This document shows positions 2,863 through 26,248 of a DNA stretch of 64,000 bases, one piece after another. A program made the position numbers and the translations under genes. Source of the DNA: an uncultured Christensenella sp. GTDB lineage: Bacteria; Bacillota; Clostridia; Christensenellales; UBA1242. Every line of letters starts with the position of its first letter. The first letter of the stretch is position 1. Under the pieces are notes generated by a model. The model had not been told where the DNA came from. It saw nothing but the letters and a program-made list of their open reading frames with translations, and did no database searches. The DNA lies in the NCBI GenBank assembly GCA_949287685.1, contig CASEHF010000001.1, positions 880 to 64,879 of the forward strand, written 5' to 3'.

Positions 2863-3034
2863 ACTTATAAACTTCCAGTTGTATTAGGTTTTATTTGTAA
2901 TGTTTAAAAATCAGTCTCATTCCTTAATTAAAAACAAGAAATTGTTTTAAATTAAAAATAAAAAAATTTCATAGTTATTATTTGACTAAAATAAATTAAT
3001 ATAGTATCATAAAATAAAACTTAAGGAGGAATTT

Positions 3035-3535: not shown

Positions 3536-3649
3536 AAAATTTGTTCAATTTGCTTGTGATATTATTTATTTAATGCTATACTAATATAGTTATATGTTTC
3601 CATTTTTCACAAACAACTTTTTATACGCGTATAACGGAAAGGAGGATTT

Positions 3650-5014: not shown

Positions 5015-5119
5015 TAAAATAATAAAAATTAAAGGAAATCTCTTTAATGATGGGGCACTCTCAAATTAAAGGGATTTTTTATTATCGTATTTTACTTACG
5101 ACCATCACTAAATAACATA

Positions 5120-5159
5120 AAAAGGGTATAAGTTAGTTTAATCTAAAATATACCCTTTT
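5120..5159. terminator. bidirectional terminator between convergent genes
   Basis: Stem AAAAGGGTATA / TATACCCTTTT with T-runs on both strands. It lies between the stops at 5014 (+) and 5228 (-). Confidence 0.55.
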
Positions 5160-5227
5160 ATTATTTAAAAACCGAAATAAACGGTTTTGTGTCGTATCGA
5201 TGCGTGTGGTCGTATTTTACTAGAATA

Positions 5228-6949
5228 TTATACCGTTTTGTTTTCGCGGCGTTTTTTATTGTTTAGACTAATTACAATCGCAATAATTATCGCCAAAATC
5301 AATGATAAAATCATCAAAACAATACCTATAATTTGTGTGATTGTTAGCGTACCATCGTTTACAAAACTTTGCGACACATATCCCTGTTTAATTTCGCCGT
5401 TTATTAGATATTGAATTTTGCATATTCCGTTAGTTGTCTCTAGCACGGTGATACTGAACCCTTTTTCTAGCGTGTCTTGCTCGGTGCTAAGCCCCTCATC
5501 GGCATATACGATAGTTTCGGCGCGGGTGCTAGCATTGCTCACAATCGTGTTATCAATAGCAGTGTCGAATTCCACACCTACAGCAGTACGGCTGTCTATA
5601 TAGTATACATTGCCCTCAAATTTCACCGCTATAAAGTTAGTCCCAGAGCAATCACTAGGGAAAGTAGGCGCCTCCACAGTGTCTAGAGTTGTGCCATAAT
5701 CCACGCGTGCGCCAAATGGAGCGAATGCGGTTTCATCTTTCTTTACACTGAATGGGAGGTTGTATAATTTTGTTTGTTTCACGACCACGCGCACTTGTTG
5801 ACTCGAAATTGCGATAGATTGAATAGCAGAGTCGCTTTTTAGAATGTAGCCCAGTTTGTATGTGCCACTAAGATTGCTATCTAGCACATAGTAGAAGTGT
5901 TCGCTACTATTCTGGAGTAGTATTACGCTTTTTGAGTCGGAATAGGTGATGCTCGGCGAATTGAGACTTTGGTATTCGTAAAGTTTGGTGCCAGCATCCA
6001 CCCTCAAGACATCAACGACCTCTGATTTTTGTGTATAATTATACAAATCAATCGGCGCCTCAATCTCGCTATATGTGGTGATAAAATTCCCGAGTTCGCT
6101 TGTGATAGCGAATTTTTCAATCGTGTTTTGCTGTGCTAGGTAGCACGCCCCAGTTGTGTAGTCTAGCGTAAATTTCGAGTATCCTATACCAACTTCAACA
6201 GACTCGACAATTTCACTAATCTTATATAGAGTACTCCCGCTATAGCAGTAGACAATTTCCAAACTGTCCACACATATATCTAAAATATTTTGCGTTATTT
6301 CGGTTGAAATTTGTGTGATTTCATATGTTTTTAAGTTAATTTTATATAAATTTTCATCAATATTGAAATATCCAAAGGTTCCAAACTCGTTTACAGCAAA
6401 ATTTCCCACAGTAAATTCTAGCGGCATTTCCTCAAAAATCAACTCACAAACTTGATTTAGAATTAAGTCATTTGTGGTTTCATCATGGGTAACTTTTGCT
6501 AGTGTATTTCCGCTAATCAAGTAAATTTCCCCTGTAGCGCTTGCGGCAATCGCTCTGTTTTGAGTAGGAAAGGGCTCCACTGTGTTTTCATTTTTGTATA
6601 TGCTTATTTCTCGTGCTTCGCTTAAATTATCCAAGTCCAAAATGTATAAATATAAATTTTCTTTTATAAATATTAATTTATTATCAGCGGCATCTAGTGC
6701 TGTGATAATGCCCGTTGGGCTAGTGTATAATAGGTCGCCCGTTGTATTAAAAATATCTGTGCCATCAGTAAAATATAAGTTATTTTCATATAGCACTAAA
6801 TCGTTTATGTTAGATACATCACTTATGTCTAAATCAAGCGTGGTTTTGTTTATATTATAGGAAGTCGCAAACACTGGCGAAATATATAATATAGCCAGCA
6901 GCATAAAAAGCAATGCTATTCCATTTAAGATTACTTTTGTTTTCCTCAT
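5228..6949 (-). CDS. type-I membrane/secreted protein with C-terminal SH3b-like modules and a C-terminal TM anchor
   Basis: The track ORF extends to 7000 on a TTG. I prefer the ATG at 6949 (MRKTKVILNGIALLFMLLAILYISPVFA, a signal peptide). The C-terminus has SH3b-like segments (..GFSITVLETTNGICKIQYLINGEIKQGYV..), then a TM segment and a basic tail (NNKKRRENKTV). Confidence 0.7.
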   Translation of the reverse strand: MRKTKVILNGIALLFMLLAILYISPVFATSYNINKTTLDLDISDVSNINDLVLYENNLYFTDGTDIFNTTGDLLYTSPTGIITALDAADNKLIFIKENLYLYILDLDNLSEAREISIYKNENTVEPFPTQNRAIAASATGEIYLISGNTLAKVTHDETTNDLILNQVCELIFEEMPLEFTVGNFAVNEFGTFGYFNIDENLYKINLKTYEITQISTEITQNILDICVDSLEIVYCYSGSTLYKISEIVESVEVGIGYSKFTLDYTTGACYLAQQNTIEKFAITSELGNFITTYSEIEAPIDLYNYTQKSEVVDVLRVDAGTKLYEYQSLNSPSITYSDSKSVILLQNSSEHFYYVLDSNLSGTYKLGYILKSDSAIQSIAISSQQVRVVVKQTKLYNLPFSVKKDETAFAPFGARVDYGTTLDTVEAPTFPSDCSGTNFIAVKFEGNVYYIDSRTAVGVEFDTAIDNTIVSNASTRAETIVYADEGLSTEQDTLEKGFSITVLETTNGICKIQYLINGEIKQGYVSQSFVNDGTLTITQIIGIVLMILSLILAIIIAIVISLNNKKRRENKTV

Positions 6950-7159
6950 TTTCTTTATCCTTTTTAATATTATACCACAAATACCAATTAAAAAAAACAA
7001 AATAAATAAAAAAAGTTTAACATTTTTATAAATTTGTATGTTAGGTGTCAGTATTTTATATTTATAATACGAACATATGTTCTAAAACATTAAGAACACA
7101 ACATTTTTAAAAACAATAGAAAAAATTTGCAAAAATTTCGAAAAGTGTGGCGCGGGATA

Positions 7160-7252: not shown

Positions 7253-7804
7253 ATGAAGAGTTTTATTTGGGCAAAAACGCTTTTTGAGGCGTATAAATAT
7301 CTAGGTAGGGTGATAAAGAGCATTGATAGATTAGTCCTATCGAGTGGTGTGCATAGTTATTCTTTACACCAATATGGTGAAAATACATTAGGAAAAATGG
7401 AGGCGATTATCGACCTTATTCAACGAAAAAAGCGGCTAGTGTTTATCAAGTTGATTATCGAGGAAGGAGTTAAAAACTTAGACTCCGAGGATGGAAAACT
7501 TTTAATTAGATATTATTTCGATAACATACCTACGGCACGCATAGCCGAGGAGTTAAATAGACCTAGGCGTACAATTCAGAGAAATATAAATGATGCGTTA
7601 GAAAACTTTATGCTAAAACTTCTAGAGCTCGGTTATAACACCGCTACAATAGAACAACTTTTAGAAAATGAAAGTTGGATACTCGGTGTATATAATAGTT
7701 ATGTTGCGAAATATCAAAACAAGGATAAAACGCTCGCTCCACTAACAATTCCAAAACTAAACCGAAATGACAAATTGATAAATTCCGTATATTGTGGTTT
7801 TTAA
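7253..7804 (+). CDS. sigma-70 region-4-like HTH protein (putative phage late-gene activator)
   Basis: AGGAGA RBS. The segment LLIRYYFDNIPTARIAEELNRPRRTIQRNINDALENF looks like a sigma region 4 / ArpU-RinA-type HTH. The gene sits just upstream of the terminase gene. Confidence 0.6.
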   Translation: MKSFIWAKTLFEAYKYLGRVIKSIDRLVLSSGVHSYSLHQYGENTLGKMEAIIDLIQRKKRLVFIKLIIEEGVKNLDSEDGKLLIRYYFDNIPTARIAEELNRPRRTIQRNINDALENFMLKLLELGYNTATIEQLLENESWILGVYNSYVAKYQNKDKTLAPLTIPKLNRNDKLINSVYCGF

Positions 7805-7861: not shown

Positions 7862-8677
7862 TTAAAAATCAAAGTTTTTATCATCTTTGCTTTCTGGGAG
7901 TGAGAGTCTGTTGAGATTCGCAATTTGCCTTGCTGCTACTTTTTTGTGCTTTCGTTTACTTGGCCTAAACACTAATAGCAGTAAAATTATAGCAGGTATT
8001 GTGAGTCCTAAAATGAGTAGCCAGTTGCTTCCGTTTTGCAATTCAGGTGCTATTACGGTACCACCATTTACTGCTTCGCTAGGTTCTGTTTCCACGATTT
8101 CAGTGTTGGGCAAAATTTCAGTTAAGTTGGTTGTCAGTGGCGCATAGACATAGCCGGTTAGTATCCCTTGCTCAAAACTTTTGTACCTGCAAAAATACCA
8201 AACATCCGTTAGTTCTGGGTTGACAAATTCACCCTTAACTTGCCCGAAGTATTCTATATCGGTTGCGTTAAACGGAATAGTCCCGATGTATTCGCTCGTA
8301 GTGTTTGGCTCACTGCGAATGACTAGATTCGCGACACCCTGCACACCGAAGGTTATGTTCTCGAGATATGGTGTTACTGGTGTCGAGTACACTCTCTCCA
8401 CATTATCGCGCAGTACATAACCGCTAAATTCGCGATAGGTGACATTTAAAAAAATTTCATCATACTCGCTATTGAATATTACAAAATACGAGGTCGGTAG
8501 CACAAAGTAAACATTGCTCGCTTCCTCTGAGTTTACTGGGGTGCGATATAGTATTGTATTCTCACTTGTGACACGATAATATGTGACTTCATCGGCTTTT
8601 GTAATAGGTAAATTACAAAAATCGGTCAAACAGAAAATGCATAAAAATGCAGTTAAAATGTATAAATATGCGCGCAT
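7862..8677 (-). CDS. type-I membrane protein with two SH3b-like domains
   Basis: AGGAGTG RBS and a signal peptide (MRAYLYILTAFLCIFCLTDFC). Two SH3b-like segments are present (..YYRVTSENTILYRTP.. and ..ANLVIRSEPNTTSEYIGTI..GYVYAPL), followed by a TM segment and a basic tail (RPSKRKHKK). Confidence 0.7.
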   Translation of the reverse strand: MRAYLYILTAFLCIFCLTDFCNLPITKADEVTYYRVTSENTILYRTPVNSEEASNVYFVLPTSYFVIFNSEYDEIFLNVTYREFSGYVLRDNVERVYSTPVTPYLENITFGVQGVANLVIRSEPNTTSEYIGTIPFNATDIEYFGQVKGEFVNPELTDVWYFCRYKSFEQGILTGYVYAPLTTNLTEILPNTEIVETEPSEAVNGGTVIAPELQNGSNWLLILGLTIPAIILLLLVFRPSKRKHKKVAARQIANLNRLSLPESKDDKNFDF

Positions 8678-8797: not shown

Positions 8798-10243
8798 GTG
8801 ATGGATAACGAATTGTTAAATAAACTGTTACAAATTGATAATGAAATTAAACGGCGGCAGCGGAATAATAAGTTAGCCGAGTATAACAAAACCAAGGTTC
8901 ATAAAAAGCAAATGGCATTTCATAAATGTGACAAACGGAATCGTTGGGTGTTTGGTGGCAATAGAAGTGGGAAATCGCAATGCGGAGCGGTGGAGGCGGT
9001 GTGGTTGGCTCGAGGGATTCATCCCTTTCGCCCGAATAAAACTTGCGATGGGTGGGTGGTGAGTTTAAGTCAGCAGGTACAGCGTGATGTTGCTCAAAGC
9101 AAAATTTTATATTACCTTAATCCAGATTGGATAGTTGACATTATTATGCTGACAGGTCGCAAAGATTCCGCACAAAACGGGGTGATTGACTATATTTTGG
9201 TGAAAAATGTATTCGGTGAAGTGAGTAAAATCGGTTTTAAAACTTGTGATCAGGGCCGTGAAAAATTTCAAGGGACCAGTCTCGACTGGGTGTGGTTCGA
9301 TGAGGAGCCGCCGTTTGACATATATCTCGAGTGCCGTATGCGCGTGCTTGACCGCGAAGGTATTATTTTTGGCACGATGACTCCGTTAAAAGGGTTGACT
9401 TGGGTGTACGATAAAATTTATTTAAACGAGAGTGCCGACCCAGATGTATGGTATATCGAAATGGAGTGGGCGGACAATCCATATTTATCCAAGGCGGAGA
9501 TTGATGCGCTATCGCGGTCGCTTAGTAGCGATGAATTGAAAAGTCGCCGCTACGGGAAATTTATCACTAGAGGTGGGCTTGTTTATAGTGAATTTGATGC
9601 GAATGTGCATATAGTTGAGCCATTTTCGGTCCCGAAAGATTGGTATGATAACATTAGTATTGACCCGGGGCTGCACAATCCCCTAAGTGCGCATTGGTAC
9701 GCGGTCGATTATGATGGAAATATTTATGTCATCGCTGAGCACTATATGGCGGAGCAAACTATTGAGTTTCATGCGAATGCCATAATTGAAAAGTGTAAGA
9801 GCCTCGACTGGCCGACTGGCTTTGATATGAGATACTCAGCGCTAATAGATTCGGCGGCTAATCAAAAAACTTTGTCCTCGCCCAAAAGCGTGAGTGAAAT
9901 GTTTTACGACTATGGTGTAAATGTGAACACTAATGTAAATAAAGACCTCTTTTCGGGCATTTCCCGCGTAAAAAGTTACTTAAAAAACGCAAAAGGTGAG
10001 GCAAAATTGTTTATTTTCTCGACTTGTGTCAATATGATTCGCGAAATCAAAGGGTATTGGTGGGGGGAGGCTGATGTCCCGATTAAAAAAGATGACCACG
10101 CAATGGATGAACTGAGGTACTACATTATGTCGAGGCCCGAGCCGCACGAACCCGAAAAACCCGCTTTAAATGAAATTCAACTTCACAAAGAAAAATTGAT
10201 TTCGCAAAATAAACGCAGGCGACTGTTGTCAAGGAGATGGTAG
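8798..10243 (+). CDS. terL: phage terminase large subunit
   Basis: Walker A FGGNRSGKS, Walker B LDWVWFDEE, and C-terminal nuclease-type motifs (SIDPGLHNP, KKDDHAMDELRYY). The ATG at 8801 is the likely true start, because 8798 is GTG. Confidence 0.9.
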   Translation: MMDNELLNKLLQIDNEIKRRQRNNKLAEYNKTKVHKKQMAFHKCDKRNRWVFGGNRSGKSQCGAVEAVWLARGIHPFRPNKTCDGWVVSLSQQVQRDVAQSKILYYLNPDWIVDIIMLTGRKDSAQNGVIDYILVKNVFGEVSKIGFKTCDQGREKFQGTSLDWVWFDEEPPFDIYLECRMRVLDREGIIFGTMTPLKGLTWVYDKIYLNESADPDVWYIEMEWADNPYLSKAEIDALSRSLSSDELKSRRYGKFITRGGLVYSEFDANVHIVEPFSVPKDWYDNISIDPGLHNPLSAHWYAVDYDGNIYVIAEHYMAEQTIEFHANAIIEKCKSLDWPTGFDMRYSALIDSAANQKTLSSPKSVSEMFYDYGVNVNTNVNKDLFSGISRVKSYLKNAKGEAKLFIFSTCVNMIREIKGYWWGEADVPIKKDDHAMDELRYYIMSRPEPHEPEKPALNEIQLHKEKLISQNKRRRLLSRRW

Positions 10244-10244
10244 A

Positions 10245-10565
10245 TTGGATGCAGAAAAAGAAAGTGAAAAATTAACAAAATCGTTATTAAAAAAGGCTAT
10301 GGGTTACACGGTTGATGAAGTTGTTGAGGAGTATGTGAGTGAGGAGGATGAATTAAAACTTGTGAAAAAGAAAGTTACTAAAAAACACATTCCTCCTGAT
10401 ATAAACGCAGCGCGGGCTTTGCTGGAAAAGTGTTTTGATAATCAATTTAACAACTTGGCAGAACTATCAGATGCGGAGTTATCTAGCCTCCGCGAGCAGG
10501 TTCTAAACGAAATAAAAGAGCAGGAGCAGCAAAATGGAAATACAAAAAGCAAACCGAAAGTATAA
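10245..10565 (+). CDS. small acidic phage protein, possibly related to the C-terminal part of a terminase small subunit
   Basis: Starts 1 nt after the terL stop. The segment KKAMGYTVDEVVEEY..LKLVKKKVTKKHIPPDINAARALLE resembles a motif I recall from Firmicute phage TerS proteins (GYEYEE...K.V.K..PPD..A...L). That assignment is weak. Confidence 0.45.
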   Translation: MDAEKESEKLTKSLLKKAMGYTVDEVVEEYVSEEDELKLVKKKVTKKHIPPDINAARALLEKCFDNQFNNLAELSDAELSSLREQVLNEIKEQEQQNGNTKSKPKV

Positions 10566-10728
10566 ATGTGCGGGTGAGGTACTATGCAATGAAAAAGTCG
10601 AATTTTGCATTAAATTTAGTAAAAAAACCGTAAATTTATGCGAAAAATGCGCGCGAAATCTATTTCAACAACTTGGTACACATTTAGTCCCAAAGTCGAT
10701 TAAAAACAAATTTAATTACAAGGAGTAA
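10534..10728 (+). CDS. small Cys-rich (zinc-ribbon-like) phage protein
   Basis: An AGGAGC RBS precedes the ATG. Cys pairs occur at CAGEVLC and CEKC. The gene overlaps the upstream ORF and ends 3 nt before the portal gene. Confidence 0.45.
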   Translation: MEIQKANRKYKCAGEVLCNEKVEFCIKFSKKTVNLCEKCARNLFQQLGTHLVPKSIKNKFNYKE

Positions 10729-10731: not shown

Positions 10732-12675
10732 ATGCAAAATAAAACAAAGAACACAACGAAGTCAAAAGACACTCGAGAGCGCGAATTAGTAAGCGAGATT
10801 CGCGAGGATTTTGAGCGTAGGCGCGAGGAGCGGAGACCCTTTGATGCGCAGTGGCAACTCAATATGAATTTCGTAATGGGTAACCAGTATTGCGGAATCA
10901 ATGCAAACGATACGCTTGATGATTTTGATAAGCAGTATTTTTGGCAAGAGCGCGAAGTGTATAATCACATCGCACCGATTGTCGAGATACGACTATCCAA
11001 ACTCGCTAAAGTTCGCCCCACTATGACAGTGTTGCCTGCTAGTGGCGATGAGGATGATATCAGCAATGCTCATGTTTGCAAAAACATTCTTCAATCGGTC
11101 ACCAGCAAACTCGAATTAAGTGAAAAAATAGCACAAGCCACTTATTGGAGCGAAATCTGTGGCACAGCGTTCTATAAAATTGTTTGGAATGACAGCGCGG
11201 GTGCTTTGCTCGGAATGACAACGGTTGGTGAGCGTATATATGAGGGCGATGTGGATATTGTCGTATGTTCGCCTTTCGAAATTTACCCCGACAGCAATTC
11301 GTGCGAGGATTTGGAAAGTTGCCGTAGCCTCATTCACGCCCGCGCCTATAATGTCGATGCCATTAAAAAGCATTGGGGAGTTGAGGTGAAAGGTGAGGAT
11401 ATCGATACCTATAATCTCGCCAATTCGCAAGTGGCAGGCGGGCTTGGGTATGTGACCCGCTCCGCAAAAATTGCGAAAACGACCAAGCACAATCAGGCTA
11501 TGGTCATAGAGCGCTATGAAATGCCAAATGATGAGTACCCCGATGGTAGGCTGGTGATAATTGCTGGCGACAAACTGCTTTACGATGGCATTTTGCCTTA
11601 TCAAAATTTGCACAACGGTGCTCGCGGTTTTCCCTTTATTCGACAAATTAGTATTACACAGCCCTCACTTTTTTGGGGTACGACAGTAGTAGAGCGCACG
11701 ATTCCTGTCCAACGCGCGTACAACGCTGTAAAAAATCGCAAGCACGAGTTTATAAATCGCCTCAGTATGGGGATTATGAGCGTAGAGGATGGTTCAGTCG
11801 ATGTCGAAAATCTCGAGGAGGAGGGGTTAAGTCCAGGCAAGATTTTAATTTATCGCCAGGGTGCGCGCGCTCCTCAAATTTTGCAAACACAAAGTTTGCC
11901 AGTTGATTTTCGCGATGAGGAGGAGAGGTTGCTAAACGAATTCTATACCGTGAGTGGCACTAGCGACTTGTTTAGTTCTAATACCTCGGCACTCGCGAGT
12001 CTCAGTGGGGTTGCGCTTCAGTTAATACTTGAGCAAGAGGATATGCGAATTTCGACAAGCGGCGAGTTCATAAAAAATGCAATAAAGGAAATCGGTCGCC
12101 ATATTTTGCGTATGTACAAGCAGTTTGCTACCTCTCAGCGTATGAATAAAATCGTGGGCGAAAATGGCAATAGTCGTCTGTTCTATTGGGACAATAGCGC
12201 GATTACTTCGGATGATATCGTTTTTGAGACCGAAACTGAACTCGGAGAAACGGTCGCCCAAAAACGCAGTATGGTATTTGATTTATTACAGGCAGGGTTA
12301 TTGCACGATGAAAATGGCAAATTGTCAAACGCTATGCGACTAAAAATTCTCGAATTACTCGGTTTCGGTATTTGGGAGGAGGCACTCGATAATAACAATT
12401 TGCAAGTCGAAAAAGCAAAACGCGAAAACATTGAGTTTATCGAGGGTAAAAATCCAGAAGTATCCGAGATACACGACCACGATTTGCATATATCGAGCCA
12501 CATAGCCTTTATGTTGAGTGGTGAATTTGACAATTATGCAAAAAATCGCAAAGATTTGCGCGAAAAAATGTTAGCACACATCCGCACACACAAGAAATTT
12601 AAAAAACTTTCGCAAATGGCGGAGTCCGTTTCATTAAGTGCGACACAAAATCAAGACACAGCACAGGAGGCATAG
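10732..12675 (+). CDS. phage portal protein
   Basis: A 647-aa protein encoded between the terminase and the scaffold/capsid genes. The N-terminal RRPFDAQWQLNMNFVMGNQY motif is portal-like. The call rests on size, position and this motif. Confidence 0.8.
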   Translation: MQNKTKNTTKSKDTRERELVSEIREDFERRREERRPFDAQWQLNMNFVMGNQYCGINANDTLDDFDKQYFWQEREVYNHIAPIVEIRLSKLAKVRPTMTVLPASGDEDDISNAHVCKNILQSVTSKLELSEKIAQATYWSEICGTAFYKIVWNDSAGALLGMTTVGERIYEGDVDIVVCSPFEIYPDSNSCEDLESCRSLIHARAYNVDAIKKHWGVEVKGEDIDTYNLANSQVAGGLGYVTRSAKIAKTTKHNQAMVIERYEMPNDEYPDGRLVIIAGDKLLYDGILPYQNLHNGARGFPFIRQISITQPSLFWGTTVVERTIPVQRAYNAVKNRKHEFINRLSMGIMSVEDGSVDVENLEEEGLSPGKILIYRQGARAPQILQTQSLPVDFRDEEERLLNEFYTVSGTSDLFSSNTSALASLSGVALQLILEQEDMRISTSGEFIKNAIKEIGRHILRMYKQFATSQRMNKIVGENGNSRLFYWDNSAITSDDIVFETETELGETVAQKRSMVFDLLQAGLLHDENGKLSNAMRLKILELLGFGIWEEALDNNNLQVEKAKRENIEFIEGKNPEVSEIHDHDLHISSHIAFMLSGEFDNYAKNRKDLREKMLAHIRTHKKFKKLSQMAESVSLSATQNQDTAQEA

Positions 12676-12676
12676 A

Positions 12677-13486
12677 ATGATAGAAAATCTACCATTTAGT
12701 TTACCTGAGTTTAACCTCGAGGAAATAAAAGATGATGGCTCGACTGATTTGGGGACTTTCAAGTCGGTAAAGACTTTAAAGGAGGCATATGACAGCTTGC
12801 GTAGTTGTTTTACAAAAAACGCGATGGAATTGGCAGAAATTAAGAAAAATATGTCTCAAAATGCGGATAATACACAAAATACCGAAAATAACGCCGAACT
12901 ATTCGCAAAACAAGACCAAAACGCCACAAAAGCGCCTCAAAATAACGAAAATTTGAGCAAACAGGCTGATTTAAATGAGATGAGAGCCGAGATTAATGAA
13001 AGCGATGATATTAGCCCCGTACAGTCAGACAAGGCACAGACCCCTGACACTACGATTACTTCGGACAAGGCAACAGCCCCCGAAAAACCGAACTTTTTGG
13101 ATAATGCAGATTGGTCCAAAAAGGCGGAAAAATTTTTTGAAACATACCCGATAGCGCGTGAGCATACAAAGGAACTTGCCGAAGCTTTGGCGAAAGACAA
13201 GAATTTTGTAAATAACGAAAATTCCCTTTTGGCTGCTTGGGTAAAAGTGCTAGAGCAAAATCGGTACAATGTCGAACTAACTGATGATTTTATCGAAAAA
13301 AACATTGTAAATAATCAAAAAATTAAAGATTTGATTATCAAAAACTATTTAAACGATATCAAAACTTTACGGTCTGCACCGCCAGTTATCGCTTCTAGTC
13401 AGGGAGTTTCCGCACAAGGAACGACTCATATTCGCGCAAACGATATGCAAGAAGCGAAAGAATTGGCAAAAAAACTATTTGAATAG
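12677..13486 (+). CDS. putative capsid scaffolding protein
   Basis: The preferred start is the ATG at 12677 (RBS AGGAGGCA), not the track start at 12638, which lies inside the portal gene. The protein is acidic, low-complexity and helical, and is encoded directly before the capsid genes. Confidence 0.55.
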   Translation: MIENLPFSLPEFNLEEIKDDGSTDLGTFKSVKTLKEAYDSLRSCFTKNAMELAEIKKNMSQNADNTQNTENNAELFAKQDQNATKAPQNNENLSKQADLNEMRAEINESDDISPVQSDKAQTPDTTITSDKATAPEKPNFLDNADWSKKAEKFFETYPIAREHTKELAEALAKDKNFVNNENSLLAAWVKVLEQNRYNVELTDDFIEKNIVNNQKIKDLIIKNYLNDIKTLRSAPPVIASSQGVSAQGTTHIRANDMQEAKELAKKLFE

Positions 13487-13496
13487 GAGATGAAGT

Positions 13497-14675
13497 ATGA
13501 TTACATTACAGACTGCACAAAACGCCTTGAAAACTATTTATCTCGAGGCGATTAGCAATCAGTTAAATTCGTGCGTGGACCCTGTGTTTAATATGATTAA
13601 GCAGAGTACCGCCGATGTTTATGGTAGAAATATCGTAAAACTTGTCCCGTTCGGACTAAATGGCGGGATTGGCGCTGGTGATGAAACTGGTGCACTACCC
13701 GCAGGGGCTGACAGCCATTATGTGAATTTTACCACAACATTGAAAAATTTGTATGGAATGATTGAAATTTCGGATAAAGCAATTCGCTCCTCTGCGAACG
13801 ATGAGGGCGCTTTTGTAAATCTGCTGACTGCGGAAATGGATGGACTACTGCAGTCGAGCAAGTTCAACCTTAGTCGTATGTTTTACGGAGATGGAAGTGG
13901 AAATTTAATTAAATCTATCAGCGCTATCGACACAACGAACAAAGCAATGACAGTCGACAACTCGTATGCATTTGCGGAAGGTATGCTGCTTGACTTTTAT
14001 ATGTCCAATGTTCTTGATGCGAATATGAAAGGGGTCGAGGTGCTGAAAGTTGATCACGCTAACAAAAAAGTTTACTTAAGCACTGTGTCCTCGAACTTTA
14101 CCGACACGAATAAGACCAAATACACCGTTTGTGTTCAGGGTAGCAAGGACAAGGAACTCACAGGACTTGGTGCGTTGTTTGATTCTGATGCTACTACACT
14201 CTATGGTATTACTAGGGCAAACTATGCGTACTTGATGCCGTTGACATATACAAAACAAAGTACTGACACTTTTAATGAAAAGTTTATCCAAAAATATATA
14301 GATTTGCTCGAGGTTAGGTCTGGTTATCAGCCTGACATTATCGTTTGTGGTGGTGACACGCTTTACGACATTATGGATATGTTGGCAGGTTATGCGACTA
14401 ATATCGATGCGGCAAACCTGACAGGCGGATACACCAGCGTATCATTCTGTGGGGTGCCTTTGATTAGAAATCGCTTTGACTCTGCTGACAACTTAATGAT
14501 GCTAAATACGACACAGTTTACCTTGCATCAACTTTGCGATTGGGAGTGGCTCACTCACAACGATGGCTCAATTTTAAAACAAAAAGAAGGTTATGCGACA
14601 TATTCCGCAACTCTAGTAAAATACGCGGATTTAATATGTGACAGACCAAATGCGCAAGCATTAATTACATTATAG
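13497..14675 (+). CDS. phage major capsid protein, paralog 1
   Basis: A 392-aa protein with a GGAG RBS, encoded right after the scaffold gene. It is alignable end to end with the next gene. An HK97-type fold is inferred from size and position only. Confidence 0.75.
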   Translation: MITLQTAQNALKTIYLEAISNQLNSCVDPVFNMIKQSTADVYGRNIVKLVPFGLNGGIGAGDETGALPAGADSHYVNFTTTLKNLYGMIEISDKAIRSSANDEGAFVNLLTAEMDGLLQSSKFNLSRMFYGDGSGNLIKSISAIDTTNKAMTVDNSYAFAEGMLLDFYMSNVLDANMKGVEVLKVDHANKKVYLSTVSSNFTDTNKTKYTVCVQGSKDKELTGLGALFDSDATTLYGITRANYAYLMPLTYTKQSTDTFNEKFIQKYIDLLEVRSGYQPDIIVCGGDTLYDIMDMLAGYATNIDAANLTGGYTSVSFCGVPLIRNRFDSADNLMMLNTTQFTLHQLCDWEWLTHNDGSILKQKEGYATYSATLVKYADLICDRPNAQALITL

Positions 14676-14687
14676 GGAGGTTAGAAA

Positions 14688-15854
14688 ATGATATCTTTAA
14701 CTACAGCGGATAGCGCTTTGAAAAATGTTTATCTTGATGTGATTACAAACCAGTTAAACAACAAACTCGACCCTTTTTATGCAAAAATCGATAAAACTAC
14801 TCAAGATGTAGCGGGAAATGAGGTCAAAAAATTGGTAGCTCTAGGCATCAATGGTGGTATCGGGGCAGGTTCTGAAATCGGTTCGCTGCCAACATCGCAT
14901 GAGAATAACTACCTAGCCCTTACCTCCAAACTAAAAAACCTTTATGGCACAATCGAAATCTCGGACAAGGCTTTGCGCGCGAGTCGCAGTGAGGCTGGTG
15001 CGTTTTTGAATTTGCTCAATGCGGAAATGGAGAATTTGATTGAGTCAAGCCGATTTAATTTTAGGCGTATGCTGTATGGTGATGGCTCGGGGTATTTGGG
15101 TAGTGTAAATGATGATGTTGCTGGTAGCAATGTGTACGAGGTGACAGACCCATACCGTTTTGTGGTTGGGATGCGACTTGATGGATATACCGAGGAGGGA
15201 ACTCCACTGGAAACATACCAAAATCAAACCGTACTCGATGTAAACTACGAGGAGTCCACCATAACTCTACCAATAGCGGTCACCGAGGAACTTGAACTTG
15301 AGCCGATTCGCCTTTATTTTGCAGGGTCAAGGGACAAGGAATTTATAGGTTTAGAGGGAGTATGCAATGCCAATATTAAAGAAATTTATGGTATTGACCG
15401 TACAAATATCTCAGCTCTAAATGCTCTAAATGAAAGTTATGGAACATTGACTATAACTGCGCTAATGAAAACATTGGATAATTTAAAACTAAACTCAAAC
15501 TCTACTAGCGACTTTATTATCAGTAGTTATCACTTTAGGCAGAAATTGCAAGAGGTTTTAAAACAAAAAAGTATGAATACAGACATCACAATGCTGGAGG
15601 GGGGATTTAGGTCGATTACTTTCAATGGTATGCCTGTTTATACTGTACAATTTGTAGAAGATGGATGTGCTTACATACTTGATTCCTCTGTTTGGCATAT
15701 GCACCAGCTCTGTGACTGGACTTGGTTAACCAACAACAAGGGCGAAGTGCTACACCAGCGTGAGGGATATCCTACACATGTTGCGACTTTGGTTAAATAC
15801 TGTGATTTAATTTGCAATCGCCCAAACACAATTGCTAAGGTAAAATCAATTTAA
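14688..15854 (+). CDS. phage major capsid protein, paralog 2 (possible vertex/penton specialist)
   Basis: A 388-aa protein with a GGGAGG RBS. It shares blocks with paralog 1: L/INGGIGAG, LKNLYG.IEISDKA.R.S, M.YGDGSG, HQLCDW.WLT.N.G and ATLVKY.DLIC.RPN. Confidence 0.75.
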   Translation: MISLTTADSALKNVYLDVITNQLNNKLDPFYAKIDKTTQDVAGNEVKKLVALGINGGIGAGSEIGSLPTSHENNYLALTSKLKNLYGTIEISDKALRASRSEAGAFLNLLNAEMENLIESSRFNFRRMLYGDGSGYLGSVNDDVAGSNVYEVTDPYRFVVGMRLDGYTEEGTPLETYQNQTVLDVNYEESTITLPIAVTEELELEPIRLYFAGSRDKEFIGLEGVCNANIKEIYGIDRTNISALNALNESYGTLTITALMKTLDNLKLNSNSTSDFIISSYHFRQKLQEVLKQKSMNTDITMLEGGFRSITFNGMPVYTVQFVEDGCAYILDSSVWHMHQLCDWTWLTNNKGEVLHQREGYPTHVATLVKYCDLICNRPNTIAKVKSI

Positions 15855-15855: not shown

Positions 15856-16236
15856 ATGGCTTTAATTAGCATAAAAAATGATGTTTTTAACATTTGCGAG
15901 CGTATAAAGCGCATAAATCCGCATTATTTTGTAGTGTACAATACAGACAGACATCAATACGAAGTGCATAATTCTAAACAATTTGCTAATACATTCTGCA
16001 TTTCTTGCGAAAATGGGTTAAATTATAGTGTTATTTCAAAATTAAGAAAGACAAAAATCGAAAATATAGACAAAATTGTGAAAGAAATAGATGAAATTAA
16101 CGAAAAAATTGAAAAAAACACAAAAAAAGAGATAATGGATGTCGCAAGTGTAAAAGCACAAGAAATGTTTAATTACGCCAAAACTAAAATTGATGATTGC
16201 AATTTTGATGATAGTTATATAACTAAATGGGTTTAA
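15856..16236 (+). CDS. phage hypothetical protein (Lys/Glu-rich C-terminal half)
   Basis: Starts 1 nt after the capsid gene stop and fits the operon packing. No family recognised. Confidence 0.55.
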   Translation: MALISIKNDVFNICERIKRINPHYFVVYNTDRHQYEVHNSKQFANTFCISCENGLNYSVISKLRKTKIENIDKIVKEIDEINEKIEKNTKKEIMDVASVKAQEMFNYAKTKIDDCNFDDSYITKWV

Positions 16237-16247
16237 AAGGAGGAAAT

Positions 16248-16817
16248 ATGACAGCAAAAGATGTTATAAAGCATTCGGTAATGTACTTAGGCGAGGGAAA
16301 TCTTGCTTCGACTACCTCGTTAGGTGGCACGGAAGTGCCCGATGACCAGCAAACCGAAAAACTAAATATTTTGCTAACTTGCGTAAATGATGTTGTAGAA
16401 ACACTTGCTTTAATGTATTTTCCCTTAAAATATGAGGAAAAAGTGCAAAATGATACTGGTTTTGTTAGTTTTTCCGAATTAAGCAAAGATTTAGTGGATT
16501 TATTAAAAGTCGTTGATAAATACGGCTATGAATTAGGTTTTAATGCATTTCCTACATATTTCGAGGCGCCAAAAGGCGAGATTACCGTTGTTTATAACTA
16601 TGCGCCGACTGAAGTCGATGATTTTACGGATACTTTGGAGATTGCCGAGGGAAATGTTACCTTGAGGATGCTGAGCATTGGCGTTGTGAGCAGGTACTAC
16701 TTGATTACAGGTATGTACAACGATGCTGAAGCGTGGCAAAATATGTTTGAACGCGCAGTTTTAGTAGCAAAACGCCCAAAAACTGCTAAATTTATTAAAA
16801 AAAGAAGGTGGTTTTAG
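16248..16817 (+). CDS. phage hypothetical protein, possible head-tail adaptor
   Basis: The preferred start is 16248 (RBS AAGGAGGAAATATG), whereas the track start is 16227. The adaptor role is suggested only by position after the capsid genes. Confidence 0.5.
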   Translation: MTAKDVIKHSVMYLGEGNLASTTSLGGTEVPDDQQTEKLNILLTCVNDVVETLALMYFPLKYEEKVQNDTGFVSFSELSKDLVDLLKVVDKYGYELGFNAFPTYFEAPKGEITVVYNYAPTEVDDFTDTLEIAEGNVTLRMLSIGVVSRYYLITGMYNDAEAWQNMFERAVLVAKRPKTAKFIKKRRWF

Positions 16818-18298
16818 TGTTTTATACTGAAAATGTACCCAATATTAGCAAAAATAACTTGCGCGTAAAGTTTAGCGACTTCTCAAAAGGAATCAACACA
16901 AATATTGCCGAAAACATTTTACCTCTAAATTACGCAGTTAATGCGTTTAATTACGATTTTAATTCTGGCGCACTGACTCCGGGGCTTGGATTAAAAGAGT
17001 TGGAGATTTATAACGGTAGTACTACTAAAAATATGTTTATGCCAGAAGTCGGTGTTAGCATTAAAAAATTTTGGCATTTTAGGCGCTACGACCACAGTTT
17101 AAATCAATTTTCACCGCTTTTAATGGTGTATACTGATAATGAAAAAATATTTATGGGCAGATTAATGACTCAAGACTATTTTTTCTACGACACAGGTAAG
17201 ACCTTTGATACCGAGCCTACAGGCATAAATTATAGAATCGATGACACTGATTGCTTTTTATGTTGTTCCCCTAATGAAATTACTGTATTTAACGGAACTA
17301 CTACTCCCACGACTTATTCAAATAATGTCCCTGATATAACTTCGGTTGCGCTGCACGCAGGTAGATTGTTTGCGACTACAGGCGGCGACCAGAGTCAACT
17401 TTGGTTTAGTGATGACTTAAATCCGACCAACTGGAATGTTAGCGCTTTCGAGGGTGGTTACATCGAACTCACTGATGAGCGCGGTACGCTAAAAAAGGTC
17501 ATTGAGTCAAATAATTATCTCTATGTGATTAGAGAGTATGGCATCACGCGTGTATCGGGTTGGGGGCTACAGGATGAGTTCACCGTGACCAACTTGTATC
17601 TTACGACTGGCAAACTTTATCACAATAGTGCCGTGTTGTGTGGTGGTGTAATTATGATGCTTTGTCGTGATGGAATTTATTATTTTACTGGCTCCACTAT
17701 GCAAAAACTTGAGTTAGGACTAGATAAATACTTCAAAAATGTCGACAATAGCAACGCAATTGGTGCTTTTTTAGATGGAAAGTACTATTTGGCGTGTCGA
17801 CTGAATTTTGATGATGCTACAATCGGCTGCGAAAGTGCGACTTATGTAAATAATGCCTTAATAGAGTATGATTTGGAAAACGGTAACATAAACATTTTGA
17901 GAGGCGTTGATATTTGTAGTTTGACACCTTTCCAAACTGAATGGTTTAGTAAATTGGTGGTTTGCCGCCGCGATGCTGAGACCAATAAATTGAGTGAGGT
18001 AACGCATGATGGCTTGATTTATAACACGCCAACGAAAAAAGTCTGGACCAGCGCAATGACTGATATCGGTTACCCTGCATATAAAAAAGCTATTCGCTCG
18101 TTATGTTTAAATACTACAAAAGATGTGGAAATAACTATCAAAACGGATGAAAAAGCGTATAATTTTAATGTAAAAGGCTCAAATTCTCCCGTAAAAGTAC
18201 CAATAAATCTAATCACTAAAAAATTTAGTGTTACTTTTTCGAGTAATACTGCTGATTGCGAAATATCAAATCCCGAACTTGAGGTGTCGCTATGTTAA
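16808..18298 (+). CDS. phage structural protein of unknown role (496 aa, beta-rich)
   Basis: GTG start overlapping the previous gene. This is the largest ORF of the distal part and a candidate tail/nozzle or receptor-binding component. No family recognised. Confidence 0.6.
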   Translation: MVLVFYTENVPNISKNNLRVKFSDFSKGINTNIAENILPLNYAVNAFNYDFNSGALTPGLGLKELEIYNGSTTKNMFMPEVGVSIKKFWHFRRYDHSLNQFSPLLMVYTDNEKIFMGRLMTQDYFFYDTGKTFDTEPTGINYRIDDTDCFLCCSPNEITVFNGTTTPTTYSNNVPDITSVALHAGRLFATTGGDQSQLWFSDDLNPTNWNVSAFEGGYIELTDERGTLKKVIESNNYLYVIREYGITRVSGWGLQDEFTVTNLYLTTGKLYHNSAVLCGGVIMMLCRDGIYYFTGSTMQKLELGLDKYFKNVDNSNAIGAFLDGKYYLACRLNFDDATIGCESATYVNNALIEYDLENGNINILRGVDICSLTPFQTEWFSKLVVCRRDAETNKLSEVTHDGLIYNTPTKKVWTSAMTDIGYPAYKKAIRSLCLNTTKDVEITIKTDEKAYNFNVKGSNSPVKVPINLITKKFSVTFSSNTADCEISNPELEVSLC

Positions 18299-18771
18299 GT
18301 AAATTCGTAACACCACAAGACAATTTGGCAAAAATCGAGGATTTGGAGCAGAAAGTAGATTATTTGCTTGAGCAATTAAAAATTCTCAAAAATACCGATA
18401 TAAAGCCTAATTTCATCACTTCATATTCGGCGACAACTCATACAATAAGCGCCGAAGGAATTGGTACAGGCTCGATACCTTTGTTGAATTTTAGTGGTCA
18501 GGCTAATAAAAAAGGCTTTGGGATAGTGAATGCAATCTTTAATACGGACACGGCGCATAATATAATGGCATCATTGAGTTTTTCAAGTAATTTACAACTG
18601 AATACTTTTAATTTACCCGCCGGCAATACTCCTATAACACTCTGTATTGAAATTAATTTAGGGGAAAACTTGATTGGAAATTTAAACATACTAGCAGGTG
18701 AGGCGGATGTAAAGGTATCAAACATCAGCGTTTTAGTGATAGGGGAAAATGTCATAGAAACATCTACATAA
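18292..18771 (+). CDS. phage hypothetical protein (N-terminal coiled-coil, beta-rich C-terminus)
   Basis: Overlaps the upstream stop by 7 nt. The IEDLEQKVDYLLEQLKILK helix is followed by a beta-rich region, which is fiber/spike-like in style only. Confidence 0.5.
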   Translation: MLSKFVTPQDNLAKIEDLEQKVDYLLEQLKILKNTDIKPNFITSYSATTHTISAEGIGTGSIPLLNFSGQANKKGFGIVNAIFNTDTAHNIMASLSFSSNLQLNTFNLPAGNTPITLCIEINLGENLIGNLNILAGEADVKVSNISVLVIGENVIETST

Positions 18772-18935: not shown

Positions 18936-19925
18936 ATGCAAACGGAAGTTTTAGATGATGAAAAAAGAAAAAATGAAGAGACTGAGAGTAAAATCAGTGA
19001 AGCGCAAAATGTCTCAACTCAAGACAGTTCACAGGTTGGTGATATTGAAAATTCTGGTTCTGTAGCGGTCGGTAATTCTAGCAATGCGCCATTAACTGCT
19101 GGTGTTGACATCGATGCAGTTAAGGACCACTTGCAAGAAATTGAGGATGAGTTTGCTTCGCAATATCCTGTATTTAACGAATCGATTTACGAAGGGCTAG
19201 ATTACAAGAGGGTCGAAATGCCTACGGCTGAAACTATCGAACGAGAGGCACAGAGTGATCTTAGTGGATATAGACAGAGCAATATCGAGAATATACAAAT
19301 TGATTATTTGGCGGATGTCAACTCGTTAAAAAACAAGGAAAATGCGGTGCAGAGCGATTTGGATGCCACTCAAAGCGAACTTGGGGCGGAGCGAGTAACT
19401 GGGCTTGCGGAGCAGCAGGCGCAAAATATTTCACAAGGGATTGAGCGCTCGAGCATAGCGGGCAACCGTGCTGCTGCTTTTAATGCCGCGATTGACAAAG
19501 AACTCGAGGCGGCGCTTAATCAGGCAAACACTGAAATGGCAGAAATTTCCTTGAAGCGTGAAATTGCAGAAAGCGAATTTAGACAAGCATTGGAAAATTT
19601 TGATATTACCTATGCTAACAAGTTGGAAAATCGCATTTCGGAGTTGACAAAAGAGTATTCGAAAAAGCAAGCCGAAGCTGTGGAGTACAACGAACGCATT
19701 CAAAAGCAGCGTGAAAGAGTGTATAACGAGTGGAAGCGCTGGGCTGACACCTATACTTCACAACTAGATTCTCAAAAAGGTATGCAAAAAGCGTACTATG
19801 TCATCGACCAGATCAAGGATATGTCTCGCCGCGATGCTAAGGAATTTTTGAAAGATGGAGACATCGTAAAAGCACTTGGTATTTGGTACAACGCTGTACT
19901 TGACTATGTGGACAGAGTCCTATAA
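18936..19925 (+). CDS. phage hypothetical acidic coiled-coil protein
   Basis: GGAGG RBS. Long helical Q/E/A-rich segments. No family recognised. Confidence 0.55.
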   Translation: MQTEVLDDEKRKNEETESKISEAQNVSTQDSSQVGDIENSGSVAVGNSSNAPLTAGVDIDAVKDHLQEIEDEFASQYPVFNESIYEGLDYKRVEMPTAETIEREAQSDLSGYRQSNIENIQIDYLADVNSLKNKENAVQSDLDATQSELGAERVTGLAEQQAQNISQGIERSSIAGNRAAAFNAAIDKELEAALNQANTEMAEISLKREIAESEFRQALENFDITYANKLENRISELTKEYSKKQAEAVEYNERIQKQRERVYNEWKRWADTYTSQLDSQKGMQKAYYVIDQIKDMSRRDAKEFLKDGDIVKALGIWYNAVLDYVDRVL

Positions 19926-19937: not shown

Positions 19938-20762
19938 ATGAGTCAAAGCTTAAAAAACAGGCTCAAAAGTTACAGTTTTTGGGTGTCACTAGCAAGTGCG
20001 GTATTGCTGCTTGTCCAAGCAATCGGAAAGCCTCTGGGGCTAGTTATCAATGAGGAGATATATATGTCGATTGTCAACAGTGTGCTTGGGGTGTTTGTCG
20101 TGCTCGGTATCATTTCGCATCCTGCGCAAAATTTACTAAGCAACAAGGACAATCAAAGTGCAACGGTTACGGATAGTACGACTACAGATGGGGCTCTAGA
20201 GGTAAAAACTCAAGATATTGTCGCAAAAAGTGCTAAAAATTCAACGAAAAACGAAGTTTTTTCTCAAAATTTAAATAGTTCAACTACTAATACACGCGTT
20301 TTGAAGGAGGAAAACTCAAGCGGTTTAAGCTTAAATTTAAATGATTTGCAAAGTAGCATTGGGCTGACCGTTAATGAAAATTGCAGCAATGCTGATACAT
20401 ATGGCAATACCAGTATAAACGATGATGTTGCTTTGAGTGACATAAATATTAATAAGGCATACACAAACGATACGAGCACTAGGTCATTGAGTTTGGGCAA
20501 CAACATATTAAATAATAGTAGTAATGGAGAATTTGGTGGCACTAATTACATGAATGGAAGTCCTATTCAAAAAGAGATAGGCAATTCTATTCAAAGTGGT
20601 AAAATAAGTAATTTCGATAATCAAAGTCAAGTAGCAAGTTCGACCGTAAATACACCTCATATAATAAACGGTGTCGAAGTAAAAAATTACTTAAGCGGCG
20701 AGATTAAAAACAGTTCGGGTGGTGTAGAACAGGACAATAAAAGCGATAGTGCAGATAGTTAG
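19938..20762 (+). CDS. holin-like protein (phi LC3-family-like N-terminus) with a long S/N/T-rich C-terminal extension
   Basis: The N-terminus LKNRLKSYSFWVSLASAVLLLVQAIGKPLGLVI...VNSVLGVFVVLGIISHP matches my recollection of phi LC3-type holins (W..R.KNKTFW.ALIPA.LLLVQAV...VVNA.F.VL..LGIV.DP). The remaining roughly 200 aa are low complexity. Confidence 0.6.
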   Translation: MSQSLKNRLKSYSFWVSLASAVLLLVQAIGKPLGLVINEEIYMSIVNSVLGVFVVLGIISHPAQNLLSNKDNQSATVTDSTTTDGALEVKTQDIVAKSAKNSTKNEVFSQNLNSSTTNTRVLKEENSSGLSLNLNDLQSSIGLTVNENCSNADTYGNTSINDDVALSDININKAYTNDTSTRSLSLGNNILNNSSNGEFGGTNYMNGSPIQKEIGNSIQSGKISNFDNQSQVASSTVNTPHIINGVEVKNYLSGEIKNSSGGVEQDNKSDSADS

Positions 20763-23739: not shown

Positions 23740-24165
23740 TCAGTATTCACTTCTGCCTATTAAATAATCAAGACTGACATTTAAGTATTTTGCGATATCA
23801 ACCAGAGTCGAGAAATAGGGAGTGGCTCCTCTTTTCCAACGCGTAAAAGCATCACTAGAAAGATTCAAATCTTTCAGAAATTTATTTTTGCTAATTTGTT
23901 GCTGCTCCAAAATCTCGTTTAAGTTATCGTAAAACTTAATTGTGTAGTTTGTCAATATAGTGTTTTCATTTTCGGGTAAATCTGCGAGATAATCAAGAGA
24001 AACATTCAAGCAATCAGCTATTTTTAAAATATTTGTGAGGCTTGGGGTAAATTTGTCAAGTTCATTAATTGCATTTTTACCGATACCTGCCATTTTGCAA
24101 AATTCACCAATGCTTAGGTTTTTATCTTGCAAAAATTCTAAAATTCTATCTTTTATTGTTTCCAT
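23740..24165 (-). CDS. tandem double XRE-family helix-turn-helix protein
   Basis: Two Cro/C1-type HTH units are present: LSIGEFCKMAGIGKNAINELDK..LKIADCLNVSLDYL and ISKNKFLKDLNLSSDAFTRWKRG..LVDIAKYLNVSLDYLIGRSE. Confidence 0.8.
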   Translation of the reverse strand: METIKDRILEFLQDKNLSIGEFCKMAGIGKNAINELDKFTPSLTNILKIADCLNVSLDYLADLPENENTILTNYTIKFYDNLNEILEQQQISKNKFLKDLNLSSDAFTRWKRGATPYFSTLVDIAKYLNVSLDYLIGRSEY

Positions 24166-26045: not shown

Positions 26046-26248
26046 ACTTAAAAACACTCTGCGGGTCGATATTTAGGATAACCTCTCTTTTCATATAGAT
26101 ATTCTATATTCTTTACAACATTTGCCAAAAAGTTAAAAAATTATCCAAAAAAGGCTAAAAAGATTTGCAAAAAATAATTAAAATTGCTAAAATTAACTTG
26201 TTCAAAATATTGCTAATCGAATTTAATAACATAACAAGCGAGGTTTTT

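Follow-up and report, generated by a model that had tools for sequence, protein, structure and literature searches.

To our knowledge, the capsids of tailed phages almost always use a single protein for both hexamers and pentamers, the documented exceptions being the T4-like and the c2-like phages. We examined a pair of tandem genes for major capsid proteins of predicted HK97 fold (MCP1 and MCP2) in a 64,000-nucleotide stretch of DNA from an uncultured Christensenella sp. (contig CASEHF010000001.1, positions 880 to 64,879 of the forward strand), the whole of which is referred to here as the window. The pair lies within a 9-12 kb module of head, packaging and lysis genes set amid host core genes, an element which resembles a gene transfer agent (GTA). 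Duplicated HK97 capsid genes are documented in T4 and in the c2-like phages; the pair adds a third case, which arose independently, and the module that carries it appears to be an undescribed and very widespread feature of gut and rumen Clostridia.

In T4 the scaffold gene is followed by the major capsid gene 23 and then by its paralog, gene 24, and the products of the two capsid genes share much less than 40% identity. According to two accounts of this phage, gp23 forms the hexamers and gp24 the pentameric vertices (PMC3012670, PMC9958956). The window resembles T4 in having two homologous HK97-fold capsid genes side by side, with the downstream copy being the derived one here and the specialised one in T4. 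It differs from T4 in its capsid family (NF033394), in the independent duplication and in the 40% identity between the copies, and also in the lack of tail-sheath and baseplate complexity and in a capsid that is probably small; a pentamer role for the downstream copy would be an analogy with gp24. A preliminary description of this locus, made from the letters of the window, had proposed the comparison with gp23 and gp24, which we consider reasonable and which is strengthened by the c2-like phages as a second precedent (PMC13595954).

In the c2-like phages of Lactococcus, the vertex-protein gene lies directly downstream of the capsid gene, and cryo-electron microscopy of Nocturne116 (2026) revealed 50 capsid-protein hexamers and 11 vertex-protein pentamers, a two-protein arrangement that the authors describe as unusual among tailed phages; the vertex proteins were also proposed to relate to the prolate shape of the head (PMC13595954). 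A satellite of the staphylococcal phage phi12 encodes an alternative capsid protein which forms pentamers only and changes prolate heads into isometric ones (PMC13595954). The c2-like phages and the window have in common a small, simple head module with a second HK97-fold gene right after the capsid gene. However, the similarity of the c2-like capsid and vertex proteins is barely detectable, whereas the identity of the copies in the window and the survival of single-copy sisters make the present pair a much younger and datable case. The c2-like phages are also autonomous siphoviruses with cross-linked prolate heads, in contrast to the podovirus-type module without replication genes found here. 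Both the T4 and the c2-like paralogs are too diverged to reconstruct how specialisation arose. With copies still 40% identical, a duplication that can be placed on a tree, dozens of single-copy sister lineages and different relaxed positions in each copy, the origin of a dedicated capsid subunit is directly testable in the family described here.

The FpGTA of Faecalibacterium, described in 2026, is a chromosomal operon of 10.5 kb whose terminase, portal, scaffold, capsid and adaptor genes are of the short-tailed-phage type. Its particles of ~40 nm contain 8.4-8.9 kb of random host DNA, with a T=3 shell suggested; the same study observed GTA-like packaging in two genera of Christensenellaceae, as 6.3 kb fragments in QANA01 and 4.1 kb fragments in HGM11616, and assigned no locus to it (PMC12946183). 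FpGTA and the window share a podovirus-type packaging and head module without replication genes in a Gram-positive gut anaerobe, but FpGTA has one capsid protein, of the N4-gp56 family (RCH50849.1), and the window has two, of the capsid_maj_Podo family. Two paralogous HK97-fold proteins co-assemble in one shell in the family 2B encapsulins (PMC11071501). Encapsulins enclose protein cargo and have no portal or terminase, whereas the large terminase subunit (TerL) and the portal protein encoded in the window point to a DNA-packaging capsid.

Among cultured phages, the nearest homologues came from Arthrobacter phage Jasmine and Microbacterium phage Shocker, whose capsid proteins aligned over 99% of the length at ~25% identity. 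Both have a single capsid gene in a full, autonomous phage genome of ~45 kb, which includes a tail-spike gene in Jasmine, and both show the same order of portal, unknown gene and capsid gene as the window. The capsid, the portal and, weakly, the tail protein also resemble those of the prolate podovirus SU10.

Two intact capsid genes of one family and predicted fold

The preliminary description had reported two tandem, full-length paralogous capsid genes, and this was borne out (Table 1). By BLASTP the two proteins aligned end to end, residues 1-390 of MCP1 against 1-385 of MCP2, with 155 identities out of 391 (40%), 59% positives and 7 gaps (E 4e-95); chance cannot account for this similarity. 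All of the shared motif blocks quoted in that description were present in the alignment. By segment, the identity of upstream and downstream copies was 0.59 in residues 1-135, 0.27 in residues 136-335 and 0.57 in residues 336-392. Both genes were also intact as claimed, with no internal stops in either and with good ribosome-binding sites (TAGGAGA and GGGAGG).

The Shine-Dalgarno sequence of MCP1 overlaps the TAG stop codon of the scaffold gene. The TAGGAGA heptamer was observed at MCP1 in 12 of the 13 pair-bearing loci, with a duplex energy of -7.3 kcal/mol, and the remaining locus (L029) had TAGGAGT (-6.8 kcal/mol); the conserved overlap with the stop codon suggests that scaffold and capsid translation are coupled and that this coupling is conserved. 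All 13 loci had a purine-rich Shine-Dalgarno sequence at MCP2, with a GGAGG or GGGGG core and energies of -10.2 to -12.4 kcal/mol. The intergenic gap between the two capsid genes is 12 nt in the window and 11-21 nt across the pair-bearing loci, which leaves no room for a terminator or attenuator and argues that MCP1 and MCP2 are co-expressed. The next gene starts one base past the MCP2 stop codon.

At E <= 0.01 the sole NCBIfam match of both window capsid proteins was NF033394 (capsid_maj_Podo), with 213 bits for MCP1 and 200 bits for MCP2 against a cut-off of 80. A full-length match to PHROG 14242, 'major head protein', was also obtained for both proteins (E 6e-43 for MCP1 and 8e-35 for MCP2), and no Pfam model matched either of them at E <= 0.01. 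Neither MCP1 by itself nor a profile of 28 family sequences matched any sequence in the PDB, so the link to solved capsids is made through fold comparison only.

AlphaFold2 models of the monomers, built on 70-sequence alignments, had a pLDDT of 82.7 and a pTM of 0.77 for MCP1, and 83.1 and 0.81 for MCP2. The order of secondary structures was identical in both models, starting with a long helix at the N-terminus and a hairpin whose flexible tip is rich in glycine; a spine helix at ~103-129 comes next, then a middle part rich in beta structure, two helices like those of an A domain and, at the C-terminus, strands. Compared by Foldseek with HK97-fold capsids, MCP1 matched at E 4e-11 and MCP2 at E 3e-11, with top matches at ~1e-10 to 1e-11 and a probability of 1.00; the matches of both copies included Pseudomonas phage Pa223, the prolate podovirus SU10 and HK97 itself. 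The HK97 fold is thus a good-confidence prediction for both proteins. The preliminary description had allowed for the second copy being a decoration protein, a protease or some other fold, and this was ruled out by the NF033394 match, the AlphaFold2 models and the Foldseek matches.

A glycine-rich loop, GxNGGIGAGxExGxLP, was observed at residues 53-68 of MCP1 (13653-13700 of the window) and at residues 53-68 of MCP2. It was near-invariant in both paralogs and in all single-copy relatives, yet it was the lowest-confidence part of both models. Possibly this loop is the flexible tip of a hairpin and has a conserved role between subunits.

One tandem duplication retained in both copies

The capsid pair was found in at least 13 independent assemblies, and the gene order portal, scaffold, MCP1, MCP2 was kept in at least 13 loci. 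Homologues of MCP1 at 89, 75, 71, 65, 53 and 49% identity each had a second gene of ~390 aa immediately downstream in the same module, the assemblies being independent and from different samples. The other outcome raised in the preliminary description, a single gene split through misassembly, is ruled out, since relatives show two complete genes.

In a scan of one genome per GTDB species, relatives of the capsid family were present in at least 595 species-level genomes, the titles of which included uncultured Clostridia, Christensenellaceae/Christensenella, Candidatus Onthoplasma, Protoclostridium, Alloclostridium and Scatosoma. That description had also suggested searching relatives for single versus double capsid genes, and both states were found: of the best 80 species-level loci, 8 had two capsid genes, 71 had one intact gene and one (L057) had a frameshifted gene. 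The pair was present in 3 of 75 loci in IMG/VR, where 95 relatives are listed as viral contigs. The single capsid gene of L057 (10001-11188) is split into two open reading frames of 242 and 152 aa, the break being either a frameshift or sequencing error, or the mark of a decaying copy.

Sorting database hits by identity as closer to MCP1 or to MCP2 proved misleading, and trees with copies labelled by position were used instead. In the first of these, a neighbour-joining tree rooted with three phage capsids, the upstream copies were monophyletic (72% bootstrap), the downstream copies were monophyletic (94%), and the two clades were sisters (75%) with mirrored internal branching orders. A tree of 324 sequences contained paralog clades of 76 and 77 proteins with zero single-copy loci inside them. 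The pair-bearing loci also formed one clade in trees of the portal (100% bootstrap), the 496-aa virion structural protein (g496; 87%), TerL (81%) and the 183-aa regulator (84%); a tree built from a host membrane protein of the flanks carried too much noise to show whether the pair-bearing hosts are monophyletic. These trees indicate one tandem duplication in the ancestor of a sub-lineage, after which both copies co-diverged with the rest of the module, and the divergence among upstream orthologs now reaches 49% identity. The duplication falls inside capsid_maj_Podo, after the split from the single-copy relatives, and is therefore independent of, and convergent with, those behind gp24 and the c2-like vertex protein. 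By this placement on the trees, MCP2 is an analogue of these two proteins and not a member of either group by common descent.

Selection and divergence of the copies

Synonymous sites were saturated even against the closest relative with DNA (89% amino acid identity), making dN/dS imprecise; where dS could be estimated, the ratio was 0.02-0.15 for MCP1 and 0.11-0.26 for MCP2. The mirrored sister clades (76 versus 77 members) and the dN/dS values well below 1 point to both copies being indispensable, and judged from these substitution patterns both are kept over the long term by purifying selection.

The two copies evolved at different rates. The dN of MCP2 was 1.3-2.1 times that of MCP1 in 11 of 12 ortholog pairs and about equal in the twelfth, and the stem after the duplication was 2.7 times longer for MCP2 (0.098) than for MCP1 (0.036). 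Single-copy proteins scored 370-400 bits against MCP1 and ~300 bits against MCP2. Being nearer to the single-copy proteins, MCP1 is the conservative copy and MCP2 the derived copy.

Strong divergence of the central part had been singled out in the preliminary description. The low central identity stood, but it was not specific to the paralogs: the central region was the least conserved in every group, with an identity of 0.40 among upstream copies and 0.35 among downstream copies, and a conservation of ~0.5-0.7 in single-copy proteins. As this segment is variable in every lineage, its divergence alone is no evidence of specialisation. The identity of MCP1 and MCP2 was nearly the same within a genome (0.427) as across genomes (0.415), which rules out gene conversion as the source of the conserved terminal blocks and marks these blocks as a family-wide constraint.

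No paralog-specific signature residues were found at 90% conservation with 11 sequences per clade. We did observe relaxation at different ancestral positions in the two copies. Q265 and Q387, conserved in 99% and 97% of the single-copy proteins, persist only in MCP1, while I277 (99% in single-copy proteins), R284 and Q288 (MCP2 numbering) persist only in MCP2. Such complementary relaxation is the pattern expected if each copy serves part of the ancestral contacts.

A GTA-like module among host core genes

The inducible tailed prophage implied by the preliminary description is probably wrong, as the pair belongs to a 9-12 kb module without integrase or replication genes that appears to be fixed amid the core genes of its hosts in hundreds of species. 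Genes for an integrase, a repressor switch or replication were absent from the window flanks and from the 25 most frequent Pfam families of 126 flank proteins sampled at other loci. The most frequent flank families at those loci were polysaccharide deacetylase, SSB, sigma factors, SpoIIGA, RNase J, gyrase A and ABC transporters. In the window the flanks contain genes for ScpA/ScpB, a D-Ala-D-Ala carboxypeptidase, an M50 peptidase and surface proteins, as well as a 16S rRNA gene and the S10-spc-alpha operon.

The same host flank genes recurred in 12-21 species each, the divergence of host flanks and portal was correlated (Spearman 0.50-0.94), and the codon usage of the element was that of the host genes. 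Taken together, the core-gene flanks, the correlated divergence and the host-like codon usage fit a vertically inherited, domesticated element better than a mobile prophage or satellite, with positional conservation being partial. A capsid-forming phage-inducible chromosomal island (PICI) or other phage satellite was also considered and rejected; neither an integrase nor a replication module of its own was found in the window or in the sampled flanks.

Candidate roles of the two capsid proteins

The reading that we prefer, tentatively and by analogy with T4 and the c2-like phages, is that MCP1 builds the hexamers and MCP2 is a dedicated vertex protein, in a fixed GTA-like element and as the outcome of one ancient duplication. 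A tandem duplication inside a podovirus-derived module, now a fixed chromosomal element of Christensenellales-type gut Clostridia, would have yielded two co-translated proteins that are both needed for a single small capsid around the scaffold and portal. The scaffold would nucleate on the portal, MCP1, which is close to the single-copy ancestor, would form the hexamers, and MCP2 would occupy the eleven pentameric vertices, as do T4 gp24 and the c2-like vertex protein. TerL would fill the shell and the holin would then release the particles. We infer the co-assembly of both proteins in one shell, the assignment of MCP2 to the pentons and DNA packaging of the GTA type.

Several observations weigh against a dedicated vertex protein in a fixed element. 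The single-copy sister lineages evidently build their capsids from one protein. With ~76 sequences per clade, one signature position was found at 85% conservation (D356 in MCP1, K351 in MCP2), and no domain-level indels were found between the paralog clades, so any specialisation is subtle if real. The Shine-Dalgarno sequence of MCP2 was stronger than that of MCP1 in every pair-bearing locus, and codon adaptation to the ribosomal-protein operon of the window was equal for both copies (0.671 versus 0.680) and made no distinction between them; MCP2 is therefore unlike a rare or minor product. In a T=3 shell with the portal at one vertex, by our own arithmetic, the pentons would account for 55 of 175 subunits. 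At about one third of the shell a vertex protein would not be minor, which could reconcile its role with the strong MCP2 signal. With regard to the element itself, its position is conserved only in subsets of loci, the flanks differ between groups of loci, and the downstream flank of the window is unlike that of its nearest relatives.

A further-reaching proposal, which we hold to be doubtful, is that the pair-bearing elements are functional Christensenellales GTAs with true two-component HK97 shells, in which both paralogs are obligatory and take non-interchangeable positions, possibly within the same capsomers. As part of this proposal, and with the same doubt attached, the single-copy sister lineages would have kept the ancestral one-protein state. 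If true, these would be the first two-protein capsids in a domesticated element and a datable natural experiment in which quasi-equivalence was replaced by dedicated subunits. Such elements could then also account for the 4-6 kb pieces of packaged host DNA seen for Christensenellaceae in human gut viromes, for which the gene cluster is missing (PMC12946183).

The complementary loss of ancestral near-invariant positions would also be accounted for by obligate mixed capsomers, with MCP1 and MCP2 within the same hexamers, for example alternating 3+3 in a pseudo-T=3-type shell, and with each paralog having lost a different part of the ancestral self-interface so that neither assembles alone. We consider this unlikely. 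The translation signals, strong and roughly equal, together with the codon adaptation suggest a similar abundance of the two proteins, clade sizes are strictly 1:1 with no losses, and a mixed HK97-fold shell exists in encapsulins (PMC11071501). Hetero-hexamers, however, are known in no tailed-phage-derived capsid, both documented pairs (T4 and c2-like) split the hexamer and pentamer roles, and the handful of differentially conserved sites is too few for remodelled interfaces.

We consider it quite unlikely that one paralog redirects assembly to another size or shape, or that alternative shells give two particle populations with different surfaces. The copies belong to one operon, separated by 11-21 nt that contain no regulatory element, and are therefore co-expressed and not switched. 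A size or shape switch does have precedents in the pentamer-only protein of the phi12 satellite and in the proposal on c2-like vertex proteins and prolate heads (PMC13595954), and it would agree with the likeness to the prolate SU10 in the capsid, portal and, weakly, tail protein. Pair-bearing loci also have longer scaffolds than single-copy loci (median 256 versus 212 aa) and longer modules (TerL-to-holin span of 11.9 kb versus ~9.2 kb), and the most divergent region of the paralogs is the generally fast-evolving central segment, which would be surface-exposed by our own reading of it.

Very unlikely, finally, is an ordinary defective or satellite prophage in which the duplicate capsid gene is largely redundant and has been tolerated: the 95 relatives among IMG/VR viral contigs, the flanks that are not identical in all loci and the decay seen in the family (the frameshifted L057 capsid and 9-10 loci without TerL nearby) would agree with it, but a redundant copy would not survive from 89% to 49% ortholog identity, with saturated dS and low dN/dS, in every clade member, the flanks contain no recurrent integrase, repressor-switch or replication genes, the divergence of host flanks and element is correlated, and the family occurs in at least 595 species-level genomes.

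Gene content of the module

The gene order was common to single-copy and pair-bearing loci, and the features of the module in the window are given in Table 1.

Table 1. Features of the GTA-like module, with positions counted from the first nucleotide of the window.
Feature	Position	Strand	Remarks
590-aa conserved accessory protein	5228-7000	-	Homologues at the same position, minus strand, in 12 loci (family 19); upstream edge
183-aa HTH / sigma-70 region-4-like regulator	7253-7804	+	Weak Pfam Sigma70_r4_2; PHROG 36 'transcriptional regulator' E 1.8e-9
271-aa conserved protein	7862-8677	-	Same position and strand in 51 loci; sub-threshold SH3_3 only
Large terminase subunit (TerL)	8798-10243	+	Pfam Terminase_6N E 2.8e-9; PHROG 2 E 2.7e-31
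106-aa protein	10245-10565	+	Weak match, limited to 50 residues, to PHROG 309 'terminase small subunit' (E 7e-6); 61-71 loci
64-aa Cys-rich small ORF	10534-10728	+	Between the 106-aa and portal genes; gene-called in relatives; 16 loci at E<1e-5
Portal protein, P22/SU10-like	10732-12675	+	Pfam P22_portal E 6e-21, SU10_portal E 3.5e-7; PHROG 156
Putative scaffolding protein	12638-13486	+	269 aa with start 12677 on a same-species contig
Shine-Dalgarno of MCP1, TAGGAGA	13484-13490	+	Read directly; 6 nt before ATG 13497
MCP1	13497-14675	+	392 aa; upstream, ancestral-like major capsid protein, predicted HK97 fold
Shine-Dalgarno of MCP2, GGGAGG	14675-14680	+	Read directly; 7 nt before ATG 14688
MCP2	14688-15854	+	388 aa; downstream, faster-evolving paralog, predicted HK97 fold
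126-aa conserved head/neck-module protein	15856-16236	+	Directly after the capsid gene(s) in 69-75 loci
196-aa conserved protein	16227-16817	+	Conserved position in 54-68 loci
496-aa virion structural protein (g496)	16808-18298	+	PHROG 3287 'virion structural protein' E 6e-10
159-aa hypervariable slot protein	18292-18771	+	Similar-size ORFs in this slot of relatives
329-aa DUF7934 protein	18936-19925	+	Pfam DUF7934 E 1e-22; 25-32 loci
Holin	19938-20762	+	Pfam Phage_holin_1 E 2.5e-7; PHROG 297 E 5e-12; downstream end of module

The 590-aa protein had no match in Pfam, PHROG or NCBIfam, and its co-occurrence with the other genes makes it a putative member of the element. The 183-aa regulator was observed at the matching position in 43 loci and is a candidate activator of the module. 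The product of the gene between the portal and capsid genes is acidic, of low complexity and helical-looking, and it had no match in Pfam, PHROG or NCBIfam; these features and its position suggest that it is the scaffold.

Downstream of the capsid pair, the 126-aa protein had no database match. The 196-aa protein found nothing in the PDB (profile search included), Pfam or PHROG, and from the gene order it is a candidate head-tail adaptor. With the family profile of g496 the best PDB match was a 1005-aa chain of the SU10 tail complex (7z47_G, 'Surface protein'), which was not significant (E 0.015) and which we take to be the nozzle protein; g496 is a candidate nozzle or tail hub. The 159-aa slot protein had no homologue in relatives at E<1e-5, and we found no paper naming the DUF7934 family. 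The holin of the window is 274 aa long versus a median of ~120-145 aa in relatives, the extra length being a long Ser/Asn/Thr-rich low-complexity C-terminal tail.

Variation among loci and neighbouring features

Ten single-copy loci (L037, L048, L054, L062, L064, L068, L072, L074, L084, L088) lack the regulator, the 271-aa gene and TerL on the upstream side of the 106-aa gene and portal. ABC-transporter genes take the place of the TerL region in these loci, with only an ATPase gene detected in L064, and no TerL was found within up to 10 kb on either side. Either the module is split in them, as in known GTAs, or DNA packaging has been lost. In another locus (L090, ~1800-6900), TerL lies ~5 kb further upstream of the 106-aa gene than elsewhere, which indicates an insertion inside the module.

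In ~20 single-copy species the module adjoins a sporulation-type sigma factor/SpoIIGA region, an SSB-like OB-fold protein and a polysaccharide deacetylase. Other loci adjoin RNase J, and examples among the flanks are L085 (1445-2221), L036 (2857-3516) and L053 (2218-2979). Conceivably, the module is linked to sporulation or to stationary-phase control.

In the window, a gene 3 kb downstream of the holin (23740-24165, minus strand) encodes a protein of 141 aa that has two HTH domains of the Cro/C1 type. This protein was without a homologue in the other loci examined and is therefore probably outside the conserved module.

The window also contains a complete bacterial 16S rRNA gene (37055-38569), with no match to 23S or 5S rRNA in the remaining ~25 kb, so that the rRNA genes appear to be unlinked in this genome. 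ARAGORN called a tRNA-Ala(GGC) of 100 nt at 35208-35307, with the anticodon at position 38, of which Rfam covered only 35233-35304 at 33.6 bits, barely above threshold. This call adjoins a normal tRNA-Thr(CGT) at 35064-35139 and may be mis-called, intron-containing or degenerate. Three large putative surface proteins are encoded around the element (909-2747, 26165-28261 and 61821-63419), one with BspA-type leucine-rich repeats, one with DUF6273 and Flg_new_2 repeats and one with Listeria-Bacteroides repeats.

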